Assembly (NCBI RefSeq): GCF_050920415.1
Contig: NZ_CP169309.1
DNA length: 64,000 nucleotides
Strand: one strand, 5' to 3'
From: Escherichia coli
GTDB lineage: Bacteria; Pseudomonadota; Gammaproteobacteria; Enterobacterales; Enterobacteriaceae
Positions 2,718 through 24,036 of the stretch are shown in pieces. The notes beneath the pieces were generated by a model that was not told the origin of the DNA, did not search any database, and worked only from the letters and a program-made list of their open reading frames with translations. The position numbers and the translations under genes are program-made. Position 1 is the first letter of the stretch. Every line of letters begins with the position of its first letter.

Positions 2718-2985
2718 CTTTTGCAATATCGTTGCGTAGCTGTTCACGTCTTACCTCTCCGTCCTGATTGCGTTGCTGATTTTCCACGCGGAGTTGCGCC
2801 AGCACCTGCTGCATATCCTGTACCCCGGCGCTGATGATATTCAGGGTGTCGGCGGTACTTTTCAGGGTGCTGGCCTGCGCTTCGTTTCTGGCGTTCTCCC
2901 GGCCCAGCGACCACGACAGACGCATGGATGTTCCCCATCCGGCAATCAGAAGGAAAGCGACGCCAAGCGTGGGCCAGAGCTTCAT
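2578..2985 (-). CDS. i-spanin (LysB/Rz-like)
   Basis: Start chosen at MKLWPTLGVAFLLIAGW (N-terminal TM helix) followed by charged coiled-coil-like region; ATGA overlap with endolysin stop. Confidence 0.55.
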   Translation of the reverse strand: MKLWPTLGVAFLLIAGWGTSMRLSWSLGRENARNEAQASTLKSTADTLNIISAGVQDMQQVLAQLRVENQQRNQDGEVRREQLRNDIAKDECAHALPDARFTDRLRRHAERATASAVSPAYTADADHSGNAAPLP

Positions 2986-3374
2986 GCCGGATAGGCTCCG
3001 TGTGGTAACTGAAAATGCGGTCCGTCTTTCAGGGTCTTCCAGTCGCCGCCCCATTCCACCGGAATATTCAGCTCCCGGCTGGCCTGTCTGAATGCTGCTG
3101 CGATTTTTTCGTACAGCGGCCATTCCCATGACACCTGGCTGCCGACATAAGCCACAACATCCACGGCATGCCCCGTAAGGTGGCGGCTGTTCATGGTCTG
3201 GCTCTTACCTGTGGCCACAAGTTGCTTCTGGCGGTAACGGCTGCGCAACCCTTCGGTGATACCAAAATCCACTTCCGAGATTTCCAGTGCCCGTCGGGTC
3301 ACTTTCACCAGATCAGGATTTACGCCCTGCAAATTCTTTTCGCTCCGGCTGCTGAATTTAAATGTGTTGCTCAT
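2982..3374 (-). CDS. endolysin, peptidase M15-type (L-alanyl-D-glutamate peptidase family)
   Basis: 130 aa with SRHLTGHAVD zinc-binding motif typical of M15 phage endolysins; sits between holin and spanins. Confidence 0.7.
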   Translation of the reverse strand: MSNTFKFSSRSEKNLQGVNPDLVKVTRRALEISEVDFGITEGLRSRYRQKQLVATGKSQTMNSRHLTGHAVDVVAYVGSQVSWEWPLYEKIAAAFRQASRELNIPVEWGGDWKTLKDGPHFQLPHGAYPA

Positions 3375-3694
3375 TCGTCCTTCTCCTTCACCCTGCGATT
3401 AAAGGCCGCAATAACCTTGTCGCGTGCTTTCTCTGCGCCCATAAAACCGATTGATGCGCCGATAAACGTCACGGCATCTTCAGGAAACCCGAAGAAGCGC
3501 AACGACCCGGCCACGGCCATGGCAAGAACGCCGCACGCCAGCGATCCCGTTACGGTCTGAACCAGTGTTCGTCCGTCATAAAGACTCATCAGCGCGGAAA
3601 TGCTGACTGCCGCGCCTACTGCATACACCGTTGGCAGGTGGTCAAAGAGCCACGCAATAACCTGCTCTGTGATCCCTGTTTGAATGGTGCTCAC
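3371..3694 (-). CDS. holin (GTG start)
   Basis: 107-aa product from GTG at 3694 with hydrophobic helices (AVGAAVSISALMSL, ACGVLAMAVAGSL); longer upstream ORF extension overlaps gene X and is rejected. Confidence 0.6.
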   Translation of the reverse strand: MSTIQTGITEQVIAWLFDHLPTVYAVGAAVSISALMSLYDGRTLVQTVTGSLACGVLAMAVAGSLRFFGFPEDAVTFIGASIGFMGAEKARDKVIAAFNRRVKEKDE

Positions 3695-18607: not shown

Positions 18608-18811
18608 TTAGCTGTTAGCCAAAGCGTCTTTTAACATCGCCACAAGGTTTACTTCAGGCTTTTCCATTTTGGCGCGTTTGGGGCGGATAATAATTCGACC
18701 GTCAGCCAACATCTTTTTGCATGTATTAAGAGGGATACCTGTTATCTCTGCATATTTCTGCAGGGATACATAGGGGGCATTCACATTGATATTGATGGTT
18801 ATACCTGACAT
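18608..18811 (-). CDS. Cox/Apl-like small HTH regulator (putative excisionase/lytic-switch protein)
   Basis: 67 aa; YVSLQKYAEITGIPLNTCKKMLADGRI resembles the HTH segment of P2 Cox-type proteins; second gene of the operon divergent from the repressor. Confidence 0.5.
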   Translation of the reverse strand: MSGITININVNAPYVSLQKYAEITGIPLNTCKKMLADGRIIIRPKRAKMEKPEVNLVAMLKDALANS

Positions 18812-18827: not shown

Positions 18828-19034
18828 TCAGGAAGATTTGTTTTGTTCTTTCTGGGTTAGCTCTAGGCCGCGAAGGAAGATCATGCGCGCCATGTTAGAG
18901 GATGAGCGTTGTTCTTTAGCTGCCATTTCATCAATGACGGCTCGCTCCTCGAGGGACAGCCGAAGTGCCAGTCTTGGACCTGTGGCGGTGTTACGCGGAA
19001 TGCGTGATCTGGTATCGTGAAGAACTTGTTTCAT
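18828..19034 (-). CDS. small putative DNA-binding regulator (first gene of early lytic operon)
   Basis: 68 aa, divergent from the CI-like repressor; Cro-like position. Confidence 0.4.
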   Translation of the reverse strand: MKQVLHDTRSRIPRNTATGPRLALRLSLEERAVIDEMAAKEQRSSSNMARMIFLRGLELTQKEQNKSS

Positions 19035-19109: not shown

Positions 19110-19514
19110 ATGAAAAATGATATTGGTCAGCGGTTGCGTGAGGAAAGGGAAAGATTGGGACTTAGTCAAGTTGCCATGAGCGACATTGGTGGAGTCAAAA
19201 AGCTAACTCAGCTTAGATATGAGAAAGGAGATAGCTTTCCTGATGCTGCGTATTTGGCAGCGCTGTCTCGTTTTGGCCTTGATGTTCAGTATGTTGTGTT
19301 GGGAATTCACTCACCTGAAACTTATAACGATGATGAGCAGGAGTTGATTACTCGCTTTCGAGCAGCTTCGTTAGATGTGAAAAACGCGGTGATTGGGGCT
19401 TTAAAAGGTGCGATCAGTGAAAAGGAAACTCAGCCATCAGGACGTGAGTTAAATATTTCTGGTGGTAATAACCGTATTGCTGGTCGTGACTATAACGAAA
19501 CTAAGGGTAGGTGA
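19110..19514 (+). CDS. CI-like immunity repressor, HTH XRE family
   Basis: 134 aa; N-terminal IGQRLREERERLGLSQVAMSDIGGVKKLTQLRYEKG is a classic XRE helix-turn-helix; transcribed toward the integrase as in 186. Confidence 0.75.
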   Translation: MKNDIGQRLREERERLGLSQVAMSDIGGVKKLTQLRYEKGDSFPDAAYLAALSRFGLDVQYVVLGIHSPETYNDDEQELITRFRAASLDVKNAVIGALKGAISEKETQPSGRELNISGGNNRIAGRDYNETKGR

Positions 19515-19529
19515 TAGTAGGGAGGTGAC

Positions 19530-20180
19530 ATGGCCGTCAACTCAAACGGTTCAAACAATCGCGTTGCTGGGCGTGATTTTCACGAAAAGAATATTCAGAT
19601 AGAGCGATATGATGGTTCTCATACCGTCAATATCGCAATCCCTTCGAATAATGATGATGACGATCGCCCTTTGCTTAAGGCTCAGCGTAAGGAGCTAAAT
19701 AGTTTGGTTGCTGCTATTGCAGAAGCTAGCAATACTGAAGCGTTTATTATTTGGCAAAAAGTACATGCTGAGATTGGTGTAGCTGGTATTGATGATATGA
19801 CAGTAAATCAATATAAAACAGCGGAGAGTTTTCTGCATGCAATGCTTGAGCGATGTAAAGATCATGATGCCTGTAAGGCTCTTGTAAGTTTATTACTACG
19901 TAACAGTGAAGACTGTGGACTTCGACAAAAACTTCTGCGGTATTGCCATATCAATTTCGGTACAGGACGTTTAAACGATCTTACTCGTTCTCAGTTACAG
20001 TCTGCATTGTCGTGGTTAGAGCAACAATCGGCATCAAGCCACACAGAGAGTTCGACCTTACCAGAAGTCCGACTTCGTGCTTCAGAATTAATCCGACTTT
20101 ATCCAAAAGAAATAATATTCTTTATCTGCGTAGGGGGTTTGGTAGGCGGTGTCATTTCTAGGGTGCTTTTTAATTTGTAA
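19530..20180 (+). CDS. cargo protein, C-terminally membrane-anchored, unknown function
   Basis: 216 aa, GGGAGG Shine-Dalgarno; C-terminal TM helix IIFFICVGGLVGGVISRVLF; N-terminus repeats a peptide motif found at the repressor C-terminus. Confidence 0.55.
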   Translation: MAVNSNGSNNRVAGRDFHEKNIQIERYDGSHTVNIAIPSNNDDDDRPLLKAQRKELNSLVAAIAEASNTEAFIIWQKVHAEIGVAGIDDMTVNQYKTAESFLHAMLERCKDHDACKALVSLLLRNSEDCGLRQKLLRYCHINFGTGRLNDLTRSQLQSALSWLEQQSASSHTESSTLPEVRLRASELIRLYPKEIIFFICVGGLVGGVISRVLFNL

Positions 20181-20209: not shown

Positions 20210-20557
20210 ATGAAAGTAAAAAAGGTTCAACTATTAGTTACTTTTTTATCTATGTTTTCTTTTTCCGCCGTCGCAATGCCTTTTAAAACTATTGAACGTG
20301 AGAGTTTCAATGGGGTATGGCCATTTAATACTGATGAGGTTCAATTACAGTGTCTTGATGGTAATCCTTATGTGATGAATTTTGACGATAATAAGTTATA
20401 TGCACTTACAGGTTTGGCTCGAATAAAAGGTAAAACATTTGGTGCGTTACCGTTAGATAACAATAATCCATTTTGGCTAGATAATGATGCCGCCCCAGGG
20501 TTAAAAAAGAGTCTGGGGGATGTCACTAAGGCTGCATTTGATTTATGTGATAAGTAA
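20210..20557 (+). CDS. cargo protein, secreted/periplasmic, unknown function
   Basis: 115 aa with signal peptide MKVKKVQLLVTFLSMFSFSAVA, no lipobox, two Cys in mature part; strongly AT-rich coding sequence. Confidence 0.6.
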   Translation: MKVKKVQLLVTFLSMFSFSAVAMPFKTIERESFNGVWPFNTDEVQLQCLDGNPYVMNFDDNKLYALTGLARIKGKTFGALPLDNNNPFWLDNDAAPGLKKSLGDVTKAAFDLCDK

Positions 20558-20562
20558 CTAAA

Positions 20563-21564
20563 ATGTCGGTTCGTAAGATTCCATCAGGTAAATGGCTTTG
20601 CGAATGTTATCCCTACGGGGCATCGGGAAAACGCATTCGTAAACAGTTTGCGACAAAAAGTGAGGCGCTCTCTTATGAGCGCCGTTTAATGAATAGTAGA
20701 GTTGGAGACGAGTTTCAAGATGGTTCTGGTCCTCGTCTTTCTGAGTTGATTGCTCGTTGGTTTGAGATGTACGGTAAAACCTTGTCCTCTGGTGCAGAGC
20801 GCAAAGTCAAACTTGAGGCGATTTGTTCCAGGCTGGGAGATCCATTTGCTTCTCAGTTTGACAAAAATATGTTTGCTACTTATCGGGAAAGAAGGCTATC
20901 AGGAGAATGGAATCCCAAGGGGAAGAAAAAACTTAGTGAAGCAACCGTTAATCGCGAGCAGTCATATCTACATGCTGTTTTTGCCGAACTGAAGCGCCTT
21001 GGGGAGTGGTCTGGTGAAAACCCCCTGACTGGTATTCGCAAGTTTCGTGAGGAAGAAAAGGAACTGGCGTTTCTGTATGTAGATGAGATTGAACGCCTTC
21101 TGATTGCGTGTGATGAGTCACGGAATAAAGATTTGGGGGTTGTTGTCCGTATTGGGCTTGCGACTGGTGCTCGGTGGAGTGAAGCAGAAGGATTAAAGCA
21201 ATCTCAAGTACTGCCCGGTCGAATCACATTTGTTAAAACTAAAGGAAAGAAGAACCGCACTGTACCGATTTCACCTCAATTGCAGGCTATGCTTCCTAAA
21301 AAACGAGGAGCGCTATTTTCACCATGTTATGAGGCTTTTGACGCTGCAATTAAGAGAGCGAAGATCGAGCTTCCTGATGGGCAATTAACTCATGTGCTAC
21401 GTCACACGTTTGCCAGTCATTTTATGATGCGGGGCGGAAATATTCTTGTGTTGCAAAAAATACTGGGGCATAGCGATATAAAAATGACTATGCGTTATGC
21501 GCATTTTGCTCCAGGTCATTTAGAGGCTGCTGTTGAATTGAACCCTTTTGACAATAGAGGGTAA
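20563..21564 (+). CDS. int: prophage integrase (tyrosine recombinase)
   Basis: 333 aa; catalytic motifs HVLRHTFASHF and TMRYAH; last prophage gene before the tRNA fragment. Confidence 0.85.
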   Translation: MSVRKIPSGKWLCECYPYGASGKRIRKQFATKSEALSYERRLMNSRVGDEFQDGSGPRLSELIARWFEMYGKTLSSGAERKVKLEAICSRLGDPFASQFDKNMFATYRERRLSGEWNPKGKKKLSEATVNREQSYLHAVFAELKRLGEWSGENPLTGIRKFREEEKELAFLYVDEIERLLIACDESRNKDLGVVVRIGLATGARWSEAEGLKQSQVLPGRITFVKTKGKKNRTVPISPQLQAMLPKKRGALFSPCYEAFDAAIKRAKIELPDGQLTHVLRHTFASHFMMRGGNILVLQKILGHSDIKMTMRYAHFAPGHLEAAVELNPFDNRG

Positions 21565-21670
21565 AAAGTGGCGATAAAAAGTGACAATAGATTCAAATGG
21601 CGTTGTATAGAGCCATTTTCAAAGTTAATAAAATCATAAGGTTATGATTTATAAATGGTGGTTGATAGTT

Positions 21671-21725
21671 TTTAAAATCCCTCGGCGTTCGCGCTGTGCG
21701 GGTTCAAGTCCCGCTCCGGGTACCA
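21671..21725 (+). other. leuZ: att junction: 3' 55 nt of tRNA-Leu(UAA) (leuZ-like) ending in CCA; partial gene only
   Basis: TTTAAAATCCCTCGGCGTTCGCGCTGTGCGGGTTCAAGTCCCGCTCCGGGTACCA matches the anticodon loop to 3' end of leuZ as recalled; the 5' half is replaced by phage DNA with only degenerate similarity. Confidence 0.7.
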
Positions 21726-21768
21726 TGGGAAAGATAAGAATAAAATCAAAGCAATAAGCAGTGTCGTG

Positions 21769-21792
21769 AAACCACCTTCGGGTGGTTTTTTT
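21769..21792 (+). terminator. rho-independent terminator downstream of the tRNA 3' end
   Basis: Hairpin ACCACCTTCGGGTGGT followed by a run of seven T. Confidence 0.65.
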
Positions 21793-21920
21793 GTACCTGC
21801 AACTTGTCGTTACACCCTCCTTAATTTTTAATCACCGGCAAAGCCACTCAAAAAGTATCTCTGATACGGACCGACATGTAAGATAGGTGTTGGCGAGTTG
21901 AGATCCACAAGGAAAAGCGT

Positions 21921-22586
21921 ATGAAAACGGGACCGTTAAACGAAAGTGAGTTGGAATGGCTGGACGATATTCTGACCAAATACAACACTGACCACGCCAT
22001 TCTTGATGTGGCGGAGCTGGACGGTTTATTGACGGCGGTGTTGAGTTCTCCGCAAGAGATTGAACCGGCACAGTGGCTGGTTGCCGTATGGGGTGGGGCT
22101 GACTATGTGCCACGCTGGGCGTCAGAGAAAGAGATGACGCGCTTTATGAACCTGGCTTTTCAGCATATGGCCGATACCGCAGAGCGTCTGAACGAATTCC
22201 CGGAGCAGTTTGAGCCGTTATTCGGCTTGCGAGAAGTCGATGGCAGCGAGCTGACGATTGTTGAGGAGTGGTGCTTTGGCTATATGCGGGGCGTGGCACT
22301 TTCTGACTGGTCAACGTTGCCCGATTCGTTAAAACCGGCGCTGGAGGCGATTGCGCTGCACGGTACTGAGGAAAACTTCGAGCGGGTAGAGAAGATGTCG
22401 CCAGAAGCGTTTGAAGAGAGCGTAGATGCCATTCGACTGGCGGCGCTTGATTTACATGCATACTGGATGGCGCATCCGCAGGAAAAAGCTGTTCAGCAAC
22501 CGATCAAAGCAGAAGAGAAACCGGGTCGTAACGATCCTTGTCCGTGCGGCAGTGGTAAGAAATTTAAGCAGTGCTGCCTGCATTAA
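21921..22586 (+). CDS. yecA: YecA, UPF0149 protein with C-terminal SEC-C metal-binding motif
   Basis: 221 aa ending [13 protein letters not shown]; K-12 gene order next to leuZ. Confidence 0.85.
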
Positions 22587-22635
22587 GAGGTCAAATTGGG
22601 TGTCAGCGTTAATTCTGGCACCCAATAAGATCTAA

Positions 22636-23847
22636 TCATCCCACTTCTGGTAACAAGCCTGCCGCAATCAAAAATTGCACGCCAATCACAGCAATACCAC
22701 AGAGAAACACCACCACCAGCGCTGGACGACCACCTTTCACCCGGTAACCCGCCTGAGGATTGTGCTTTCTGCTTTGCCAGGTCAACAGCGAAGGGATAAT
22801 CAATGCCAGTACCGCCAGCGCCACACCGGCGTAACCCAGCGCCATTACAAATCCTCGTGGATAAAACAGTGCAAACGCTAACGGCGGCAGAAAGGTAATT
22901 GCACCAGTTTGCAATCGTCCACCAACGGTATTTGAACGCTGAAACAAATCTGCCAGATAATCAAATAAACCTAACGCAACGCCGAGGAATGACGTGGCGA
23001 GGGCTAAATCAGCAAATAAATGCACCGCCAGCTCAACATGCGGAGAGGCCACCATTTCGCGTAACGCCTGTAACAGCCCGTTTAATCCGGCATGATTAGC
23101 CAGCAATCCCATAAAGGTTGTTGAATCAATGCTGCCAAGCGTCGCCAGCTGCCAGAAAATATATGCCACCAGGGGGATCGCACTACCGGTTATAAACACC
23201 CAGCGTAGCTTACGAATATTGCCATCCATATAACTGACAATGCTCGGCACGCTACCGTGAAAACCAAACGACGTAAAAATCACTGGGATTGCAGACAGTG
23301 CCAGCCCCTGTTGCAACGGCAGGGTTAAAAGATTCACCTTATGAATATGCGGAAGTAGCAGTACCAGCATCACCACCAGAAAAATAATTTTGGCGCTGAA
23401 CAGAAAACGGTTAAATAAATCGACCAGCGAAGTTCCGACACAAACCACGCCACCGGCAACAAAAGTGAACAACAGCACGCCAGCGGTTGCCGACATTGAA
23501 ATACCTGTCCAGTCGCTGATGCTGGAAGCCAACAATTCACCAGCACCACTGATGTATGCCGCAGTCAGAGCATACATTAAGAACATCATACTGAAGCCCG
23601 TCAGCCACTGACCGTAGCGTCCCAGATAGCGTTTTGCCAGCGTGCCCAGACCGGTATCTGCCGGGACATGCTGGTACACCTCCAGTAGTAATAGCGCCGT
23701 GTAGCACATCAACGCCCAAAGCCCAATCAACAAGATTAACGTGACGCTAAAACCAACACCTGCCGCAGCCAGCGGCATTGCCAGCATGCCTGCGCCAATT
23801 GTGGTTCCCGCCACGATAAAAACACTTCCCAGAGTTCTGTTTTTCAC
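22636..23847 (-). CDS. tyrP: tyrosine-specific transport protein
   Basis: 403-aa polytopic membrane protein, recognised as TyrP. Confidence 0.9.
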
Positions 23848-24036
23848 GCTTTCTTCTGTCCTGACGATCTTTATGAGTGATATCTGCGGCGCAGGTTAAG
23901 GCATAACGGCGGATTCGTCAAACCGGCGTTACATATGGTGTAAATATAAATGTACAATAAAATGCGTTCAGTCCTGCGCTGGCGCAAAGTCTTGGTAAGC
24001 GGCAATCGCTACGCTAGCCTTTTTTGAGGAGGAACG

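Follow-up and report, generated by a model that had tools for sequence, protein, structure and literature searches.

A peptide shared by an XRE-type prophage repressor and the product of the next gene in Escherichia coli

Introduction

In SinR/SinI (and SlrR/SlrA) of Bacillus and in AimC/AimX of arbitrium phages, an XRE repressor and the product of a neighboring gene share a C-terminal segment of the repressor, and it is through this segment that the partner acts. A partner acting by mimicry of a repressor segment has been described (10.1101/2025.11.23.689978). Amyloid signaling pairs show another kind of sharing, in which the same motif is located at the C-terminus of one protein and at the N-terminus of its neighbor, the likeness being greater within pairs, and in which Q, N, G, V, and I are enriched and K, P, and L are depleted (10.1101/2020.01.06.895854). 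Bab/Agp (BASS11) is a validated amyloid pair of E. coli prophages (10.1101/2024.11.07.622273); motifs of this class comprise ca. 25 residues with beta-arch propensity, and a beta-strand amyloid-like fold in AlphaFold is reported for BASS11. The partners in such pairs are an oligomerizing sensor (NLR/STAND, TPR, and similar) and a cell-death or immune effector (Bell, HeLo, TIR, CHAT, and similar). Here, we analyzed a 64-kb stretch of Escherichia coli DNA (RefSeq assembly GCF_050920415.1, contig NZ_CP169309.1), the whole of which is called the window below. A P2-like prophage in the window carries an XRE-type repressor gene and, directly downstream, an open reading frame (ORF2) for a membrane protein, and the C-terminus of the repressor and the N-terminus of ORF2 carry the same peptide motif.

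Results

The repressor and ORF2 of the window carry the same peptide

The two genes and the parts of them considered here are as follows. Structure models were made with AlphaFold2 (AF2).

19110–19514, + strand: XRE immunity repressor, 134 aa (Pfam, PHROG, AF2, Foldseek).
19449–19499, + strand: repressor copy of the shared peptide, residues 114–130, LNISGGNNRIAGRDYNE (BLASTP), with the basic end TKGR next to it, up to 19511.
19512–19529, + strand: junction of the two ORFs, with the in-frame stops TGA TAG TAG (19512–19520) and then the Shine-Dalgarno (SD) sequence GGGAGG (19520–19525), read from the sequence.
19530–20180, + strand: ORF2, 216 aa, tail-anchored membrane protein (phrog_5825, NCBIfam, Pfam on homologs, AF2).
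19536–19586, + strand: ORF2 copy of the shared peptide, residues 3–19, VNSNGSNNRVAGRDFHE (BLASTP; homolog alignment).
19662–20039, + strand: all-helical Flk_N/ORF6C-like domain of ORF2, residues ca. 45–170 (AF2; hhalign).
20097–20165, + strand: C-terminal hydrophobic segment (tail anchor) of ORF2, residues ca. 190–212 (Kyte-Doolittle scan; homologs are arranged likewise).

The repressor ends with LNISGGNNRIAGRDYNE-TKGR, which is also quoted as GRELNISGGNNRIAGRDYNETKGR followed by the stop codon and as LNISGGNNRIAGRDYNETKGR, and ORF2 begins with MA-VNSNGSNNRVAGRDFHE, that is, MAVNSNGSNNRVAGRDFHEKN. A sequence-only reading of the window had reported this likeness, and both ends were found exactly as it quoted them. 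In a single BLASTP comparison, repressor residues 114–130 and ORF2 residues 3–19 had 10 of 17 residues identical and 15 of 17 positive, with an E value of 2e-5. The local alignment score of the tail against the N-terminus was 62, and that of shuffled tails was 21.8 ± 4.1 (z = 9.7; computed for locus L002, where the sequence is identical). The shared-peptide observation is thus real and not due to chance.

Among the codons of the 10 identical residues, six differ synonymously and four are the same, and the longest exact DNA run common to the two copies is ca. 8 nt. The claim of the same reading that the match lies at the protein level and does not reflect a recent DNA duplication is therefore upheld. 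A six-frame regex scan of the whole window found no third copy of the motif.

The two genes are located on the same strand and are separated by 15 nt. ORF2 has a strong SD sequence, GGGAGG, 4 nt before its ATG, and the triple in-frame stop of the repressor gene runs directly into it (19512–19525).

The motif is conserved in both protein families

The suggestion that this is a conserved functional peptide agreed with the alignments of homologs of both proteins, in which the motif was retained in both families as a conserved, selected feature. In ORF2 homologs from many enterobacterial genera (n = 27), S5, G7, N10, R11, D16, and E19 are invariant, and close homologs of the repressor all end with [IV]N[VI][ST]G.GNR[VI]AGRD[YF][NH]E.KK. 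The enterobacterial copies have the invariant core G..NR.AGRD[FY].E in common, and the fixed differences between them are the basic end on the repressor side and an acidic fifth position on the ORF2 side.

The two copies also occur together. All 80 IMG/VR loci with an ORF2 homolog have an upstream repressor with the tail, and these loci represent 37 distinct pairs. The pairing of tail and ORF2 motif was also found in Salmonella prophages and in a metagenomic contig, and repressor-partner pairs homologous to that of the window are present in Klebsiella, Salmonella, Serratia, Yersinia, Pseudomonas, and other genera. Conversely, the motif is absent from chromosomal Flk-type proteins (P0271 and P0281). 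It is also absent from one ORF2 homolog (P0283, locus L167); upstream of this homolog, the contig extends for only 213 nt, and this stretch contains no repressor-like ORF. In a 186-like prophage, a repressor that belongs to the same HTH family but has no tail is not accompanied by any neighbor with the motif.

Several unrelated specificity types are represented among the helix-turn-helix (HTH) domains of these repressors, whose C-terminal helices and tail, in contrast, are conserved. The identity of ORF2 correlates with that of the C-terminal part of the repressor (r 0.61) better than with that of the HTH (r 0.30). These results indicate that the tail and ORF2 travel together and that the DNA-binding specificity is swapped.

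One subgroup of Flk_N partners (P0258, P0275, P0284, P0288, and P0310), represented by L163:1173-1643 and L163:1666-2319, is built in another way. These partners have an extra N-terminal helix (M..DDRLAKLAE.LK) followed by the internal beta-motif IKIKGGGHINLGGTQVNIN, and their repressors end in a helix (..ERILKLVVNR) and not in a tail. The pair may represent a different docking solution.

The two copies change together between lineages

We surveyed repressor homologs in 80 loci, taking one genome per species. In the loci with a tail, the tails vary by lineage, yet each is similar to the N-terminus encoded by the gene directly downstream. The motif types include NR[VI]AGRD[FY], QxFxGxVGQVxxGDIxN, GSGxQ[VF]GxVS, and GxxAAGRD, and the Pseudomonas-type motif is QDFHGGVGQVAGGDITN. 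Examples are as follows.

Pseudomonas L050: repressor tail QTFHGSVGQSVAGNITNKSGVTFNVG; partner N-terminus MKQDFHGGVGQVAGGDITNFGVNISL.
Bordetella L022: repressor tail QVFHGQVGQ; partner N-terminus QIFRGQVGQ.
Gilliamella L007: repressor tail GEGQIAGGNIY; partner N-terminus AEQIAGRDIY.
L045: repressor tail GIMAGRDA; partner N-terminus GVLAGRDG.
L056: repressor tail GGHAAGRDM; partner N-terminus EGYAAGRDI.
L035: repressor tail HGSGMQVGHVS; partner N-terminus TGSGTQFGQVS.
Comamonas L078: repressor tail GSGSVQIGHIGGDY; partner N-terminus GDGGIQVGSVGGDL.

The matching was evaluated with 25 diverse loci (Enterobacterales, Gilliamella, Aeromonas, Bordetella, Pseudomonas, Comamonas, Thiothrix, and others). 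The summed score of the cognate pairs was 1184, compared with 692 ± 61 for permuted pairings, and none of 20000 permutations reached 1184. The cognate sum exceeded the swapped sum in 274 of 300 locus pairs, and several tails were nearer to the N-terminus of their own partner than to any orthologous tail. Identical codons were used at 116 of the 230 identical residues, when 103 would be expected from codon usage. Since codon identity is at the expected level, the match is held at the protein level and not by recent conversion.

At least 19 of the 25 partners have a hydrophobic segment. The motif was found at the start of three membrane ORFs downstream of the repressor gene in Pseudomonas fluorescens (L050), and of two in L033. 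These results suggest that the tag can be placed on different membrane proteins, since two or three N-terminally tagged ORFs match one tail, as would be expected of a docking tag.

The extra small membrane ORFs beside the Flk_N partner (L050:4699-5094 and L050:5081-5515 of P. fluorescens H16; L033 from ca. 3850 to the contig end) begin with MGNQSFNSDVGQVAGGNIINNYG and ..GHQIFNGSIGQVAGKNIINHP. No PHROG or PADLOC family was found for the extra ORFs of L050, and the L033 partner gave one weak PHROG match, over the motif region.

A different arrangement was seen in Pseudomonas psychrophila (L032), where a tail-less 115-aa XRE repressor (2983-3330) is followed, after a gap of 90 nt, by a 55-aa ORF (3421-3588). 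The middle of this ORF, DERMLLTLYREMSEHDRRYIRRMAEVF, resembles the C-terminal helices of the repressor itself, EDKLVNQYRALADADKKAVHRIVGAMWEV (shuffle z = 5.6), and the two may form a SinR/SinI-like pair in a proteobacterium.

Single-chain relatives join the two proteins in one polypeptide

A profile search with the ORF2 homologs against 1.84 billion representative proteins revealed two single-chain proteins (P0378 and P0368) composed of an N-terminal HTH, a Gly/Asn/Val-rich segment, and an ORF2-like domain. The P0378 family comprises 40 clusters of 258–285 aa with Pfam HTH_3/HTH_31 and ORF6C. The P0378 gene is divergent from small early genes, and a 267-aa member of the family, found on 405 Pseudomonas aeruginosa contigs, is transcribed divergently to the genes for Mu-type transposases A and B. 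This placement corresponds to a repressor position, the one that the c repressor has in D3112/B3-like transposable phages.

The two proteins of the window align with the single-chain family in collinear order. Repressor residues 1–68 matched single-chain residues 1–71 (hhalign 98.9%, E 1.7e-17, 36% identity over 72 columns), and ORF2 residues 41–172 matched single-chain residues 122–267 (hhalign 96.5%, E 9e-10). Between these parts lies a beta-prone linker with the consensus V.I.GG..NVVG.VQ.G.TV.QI.T..HVT.T.A.VKPG, which is of the same character as the first 40 residues of ORF2. Along phrog_17822 (267 aa), positions 5–103 were matched by the window repressor (E 1.3e-10) and positions 94–264 by the soluble partner of L056. 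Thus, judged by sequence homology, the repressor and ORF2 are the two halves of an old split phage repressor, with the junction peptide kept on both.

The sequence-only reading had also considered a gene fused or split during cargo acquisition. A split in the evolutionary sense is what the single-chain relatives point to; its timing was different. The split state is common to Enterobacterales, Gilliamella, Bordetella, Pseudomonas, and others, which, together with codon identity at the expected level, indicates that the split is old and not tied to the acquisition of cargo.

The cleanest two-gene version was found in Stutzerimonas stutzeri (L056, 2995-3381 and 3392-3997), whose partner is soluble and matches its part of phrog_17822 with an E value of 2e-27.

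Domain structure of the repressor and ORF2

The HTH of the repressor (residues 1–68) is of the XRE type (Pfam HTH_31/HTH_19/HTH_3), and its PHROG matches were PHROG 8 (transcriptional regulator) and the phrog_17822 match given above. It is followed by two C-terminal helices (residues ca. 74–104) and the tail; in the AF2 model, the HTH and helices were confident, and the predicted local distance difference test (pLDDT) score of the tail was below 50. The best structural matches in Foldseek were SinR, P22 C2, and 434-type HTH proteins, including the SinR-SinI complex 1b0n.

ORF2 belongs to phrog_5825 (E 2e-102), and Pfam PF27202 (Flk_N) was found on its homologs. NCBIfam Flk PRK10715 matched ORF2 over the N-terminal part of the model only, with E 8e-16 and 58.2 bits against a curated cut-off of 353. 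ORF2 starts with 40 low-confidence and beta-prone residues, continues with the helical domain (helices 50–170, pLDDT ca. 90–96), and ends with a spacer and the hydrophobic anchor. With the ORF2 and fused-repressor profiles as queries, no solved relative of the helical domain was found in the PDB.

PADLOC gave no defense-system match for ORF2, for the DUF2511 protein encoded downstream of it, or for nine partner proteins of other lineages. A tenth partner (L017) gave weak matches only (PbeC, E 0.0015; JetC, E 0.0027), and the matches to the repressor were to generic HTHs only.

The immunity region of the prophage

The prophage is P2-like, and its immunity region, which adjoins yecA/tyrP, is 97.7% identical to Escherichia phage 520873 (Peduoviridae, Xuanwuvirus). 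This 1.6-kb region is present in 520 of 5426 complete E. coli genomes (ca. 1/10). The + strand carries a row of four genes in the order XRE repressor, ORF2, DUF2511 protein, and integrase, and the repressor gene is divergent from Arc-like and Cox-like early genes; this is the lysis-lysogeny switch. The neighboring features are as follows.

20210–20557, + strand: DUF2511 protein, 115 aa, with a signal-peptide-like N-terminus (RefSeq annotation, phrog_2950); the motif is absent (regex scan).
20563–21564, + strand: P2-type tyrosine integrase, 333 aa, last gene of the lysogenic row (context).
18828–19034, − strand: Arc-like repressor gene (PHROG 3431; NC_049344 annotation).
18608–18811, − strand: Cox-like excisionase/repressor gene (PHROG 575; NC_049344 annotation).
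19100–19072: promoter-like site at the lysis-lysogeny switch (promoter scan).

A scan of the + strand from the repressor gene to int found no terminator-like site. No Tum-like antirepressor was recognized by PHROGs among the small early and late ORFs. ARAGORN detected no tRNA gene between the integrase gene and yecA/tyrP (21600–23900), so the attachment site of the prophage is not an obvious tRNA on that side. The DUF2511 protein (phrog_2950), located between ORF2 and the integrase, looks like the product of a lysogenic-conversion gene, and Salmonella relatives have an unrelated 234-aa ORF in its slot (L164:5094-5798).

Among 50,697 GenBank phage records, ORF2 was found in one phage only, 520873 (two records of the same genome), where it appeared as three tblastn pieces without an annotated feature. 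In NC_049344.1 (locus L001; 4515-5555 and 5556-6556), where ORF2 is in this state, the integrase is annotated as two coding sequences; the ORF2 and integrase genes are both intact in the window. NC_049344.1 is therefore probably a decayed or mis-sequenced prophage. Locus L002 (JAIJJM010000267.1), a 4-kb contig of a metagenome-assembled genome labeled 'Collinsella sp.', encodes a repressor identical to that of the window and a nearly identical ORF2. As Collinsella is an actinobacterium, this bin was probably contaminated by E. coli prophage DNA.

Our literature search found no paper describing ORF2 or linking such a motif to a prophage repressor. A paper on Serratia PP4 was judged not relevant, that prophage having a P2-type 99-aa repressor.

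Discussion

Possible roles of the shared peptide

On balance, we consider that the peptide probably mediates a physical coupling of the repressor and ORF2, and we infer its contact, geometry, and regulatory outcome as follows. In the window, the HTH half ends with a copy of the first linker element, and the helical half begins with another and has gained a C-terminal membrane anchor. The peptide would act as a docking element, either by strand-to-strand pairing or by the repressor tail replacing the first strand of ORF2 itself, and would thereby link the DNA-binding repressor with its separate partner in the membrane. Both proteins are made from the same lysogenic transcript, and the partner would set the amount of free or oligomeric repressor. 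As a result, the lysis-lysogeny switch could receive an input linked to the membrane, or the repressor could control the membrane protein. As ORF2 is co-transcribed with the repressor gene, it cannot be a constitutive antirepressor; it must either assist in repression as a co-factor or be latent, as a sensor or an effector. Conservation, matched change, co-occurrence and co-absence, collinear single-chain homology, and the operon layout support this proposal. That two proteins are fused in other genomes is a classical indication that they interact.

Several accounts without such a coupling have to be set against it. Chance similarity is suggested by the shortness of the match (17 residues) and its richness in the common residues G and N. 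It was rejected on the BLASTP E value of 2e-5, the shuffle z of 9.7, and the conservation of the motif in both families. A recent local DNA duplication or ongoing gene conversion was rejected on the six of 10 codons that differ, the DNA runs of ca. 8 nt, and the expected codon identity over the 25 loci; taken together, explanations of this kind are highly improbable. The two ORFs might also be joined into one protein, either by programmed readthrough or frameshifting, which the sequence-only reading had named as points to check, or by hopping of ribosomes between the two copies as take-off and landing sites. In favor of this, the ORFs of the window share a reading frame, with a gap of just 15 nt between them. 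This explanation was rejected, as three stops (TGA TAG TAG) separate the ORFs and ORF2 has its own strong SD sequence and ATG. In addition, the gaps vary by lineage (−4, 0, 1–3, 9–18, 72, 106, and 255 nt) with no constant frame relation, and a joined product would hold the peptide twice, unlike the single-chain relatives. We regard its probability as negligible. It is more conceivable, though still unlikely, that the peptide is a relic of the split or serves a common third partner, each half needing it alone for self-oligomerization or for binding a shared antirepressor, host protease, or chaperone, with no mutual contact. The derivation of the peptide from a linker present once in the single-chain repressors is in keeping with this, as are several observations that weigh against docking. 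Two Janthinobacterium repressors have the tail and no detectable partner within 3 kb, which suggests that the tail may also have a partner-independent role. Residue-by-residue covariation within the enterobacterial class was not above chance. In an AF2 model of an ORF2(1-170)-linker-repressor chimera, built with a paired alignment of 33 cognate pairs, the domains folded well, and both motif regions had pLDDT below 50 and made no contact. A model of two repressor C-termini with two ORF2 N-termini was uninformative, with a mean pLDDT of 43.6, both motif regions below 50, and no pairing. A third phage component that binds both copies and evolves along with them could likewise produce matched change; no third motif-bearing protein was found in the part of the prophage within the window. 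On the other side, a conserved host factor would keep the motif constant, whereas the motif differs strongly by lineage and is matched within each locus. For the same reason, a degradation signal, one of the functions proposed at first, is disfavored, as such a pattern is not predicted for a conserved host protease. Loss of one copy also goes with absence of the other. The copies of a split relic would drift apart, yet the two copies stay matched while the motif changes, and they occur and are missing together. The simplest account is that they have to fit one another or the same ORF2 N-terminal strands; on this account, the peptide would dock the repressor on its partner, which in most lineages is membrane-bound.

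The shared peptide could instead be a bacterial amyloid signaling motif (BASS-like), one copy adopting a cross-beta fold upon a trigger and templating the other, a proposal that we hold to be unlikely. In one direction, membrane partners that oligomerize would aggregate or inactivate the repressor and so cause RecA-independent induction; in the opposite direction, the repressor tail would switch on membrane effectors and lead to abortive infection or exclusion. The adjacent-gene arrangement of C-terminal and N-terminal motifs is present in the window and in other lineages, and the composition (866 motif residues compared with 5986 background residues) shows N at 3.5x, G at 2.4x, V at 1.65x, Q at 1.4x, and I at 1.1x, with L at 0.11x, P at 0.47x, and K at 0.56x, the same bias as published for amyloid signaling motifs. 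A G-phi-Q-phi-G core as in RHIM/PP/BASS3 can be seen by eye in L078 (GSVQIGHIGGD and GGIQVGSVGGD) and L035 (SGMQVGHVS and SGTQFGQVS). Both motif regions are unstructured in the monomer models, several motif-tagged membrane proteins occur in one locus (L050 and L033), and 'all-in-one' fused relatives exist. Nevertheless, the partner domains are unlike those of known systems, with no NLR/STAND-like sensor and no Bell/HeLo-type effector, and the R and D residues at the center of the short enterobacterial motif are charged. In the single-chain repressors, the related segment serves as an ordinary internal linker. The motif is ca. 17 aa long in the window and ca. 27 aa in the Pseudomonas class. No beta-arch was seen in the AF2 chimeras, in which pLDDT was ca. 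30–45 and only weak strands appeared. Because of the misfit of the partner domains, the short and charged motif, and the linker in the relatives, we did not classify the pair among the amyloid-motif systems.

If docking of the repressor to ORF2 holds, it would constitute a layer of lysogeny control not described by the P2 and 186 models, one that could carry membrane or envelope input, and a natural example of a two-gene split repressor kept coupled by a short tag. The lineage-specific matched tags could serve as orthogonal docking peptides. If instead the amyloid proposal holds, a functional, prion-like amyloid motif would couple one or several membrane proteins to the immunity repressor, and the lysis-lysogeny switch or a repressor-gated abortive infection would be thrown by templated cross-beta assembly and not by RecA-mediated cleavage or a classical antirepressor. 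Besides NLR/cell-death pairs, amyloid signaling would then also serve the control of transcription in common enterobacterial prophages.

Relation to known systems

The pairs HET-S/NWD2 (fungal), BASS1-10 (Bell-domain and NLR), and Bab/Agp resemble the pair of the window in having a G/N/Q/V-rich C-terminus/N-terminus motif pair matched per locus, and Bab/Agp is also prophage-encoded in E. coli. However, the protein with the C-terminal motif is here a DNA-binding repressor and not a pore-forming effector, and the place of the NLR or tetratricopeptide repeat (TPR) sensor as bearer of the N-terminal motif is taken by a small tail-anchored protein with a Flk_N domain. Flk (PRK10715) likewise has a Flk_N helical domain, a C-terminal membrane anchor, and a cytoplasmic body. 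In contrast to ORF2, it is ca. 330–430 aa long and chromosomal, and has neither an adjacent repressor nor the N-terminal peptide; ORF2 also scores far below the Flk cut-off. ORF2 shares only the Flk_N domain with Flk, and no flagellar role is implied.

The single-chain HTH-linker-ORF6C repressors (phrog_17822) have a homologous XRE HTH and helical domain with a Gly/Asn/Val-rich segment between them, and their gene is located at the lysogeny switch, divergent from early genes. In the window, by contrast, the pair is encoded by two genes, the ORF6C-like domain lying in the next gene after three stops. Two additional helices are found in the HTH half and a membrane anchor in the helical half, and the junction peptide is present twice, once per half.

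With SinR-type repressors, the window repressor shares the layout of an XRE HTH followed by a C-terminal oligomerization element, which corresponds here to two helices and the tail. The element shared with SinI or AimX is a helical oligomerization hook, whereas here it is the non-helical tail (114–130), beyond helices 74–104. SinI and AimX are small soluble partners under separate control, whereas ORF2 is a 216-aa membrane protein encoded 15 nt downstream with no terminator-like site between. SinR/SinI and AimC/AimX are functionally analogous in that part of the repressor is also found in the partner. The repressor-ORF2 pair belongs with coupled split proteins and with motif-sharing repressor-partner pairs, and it is common in enterobacterial prophages.

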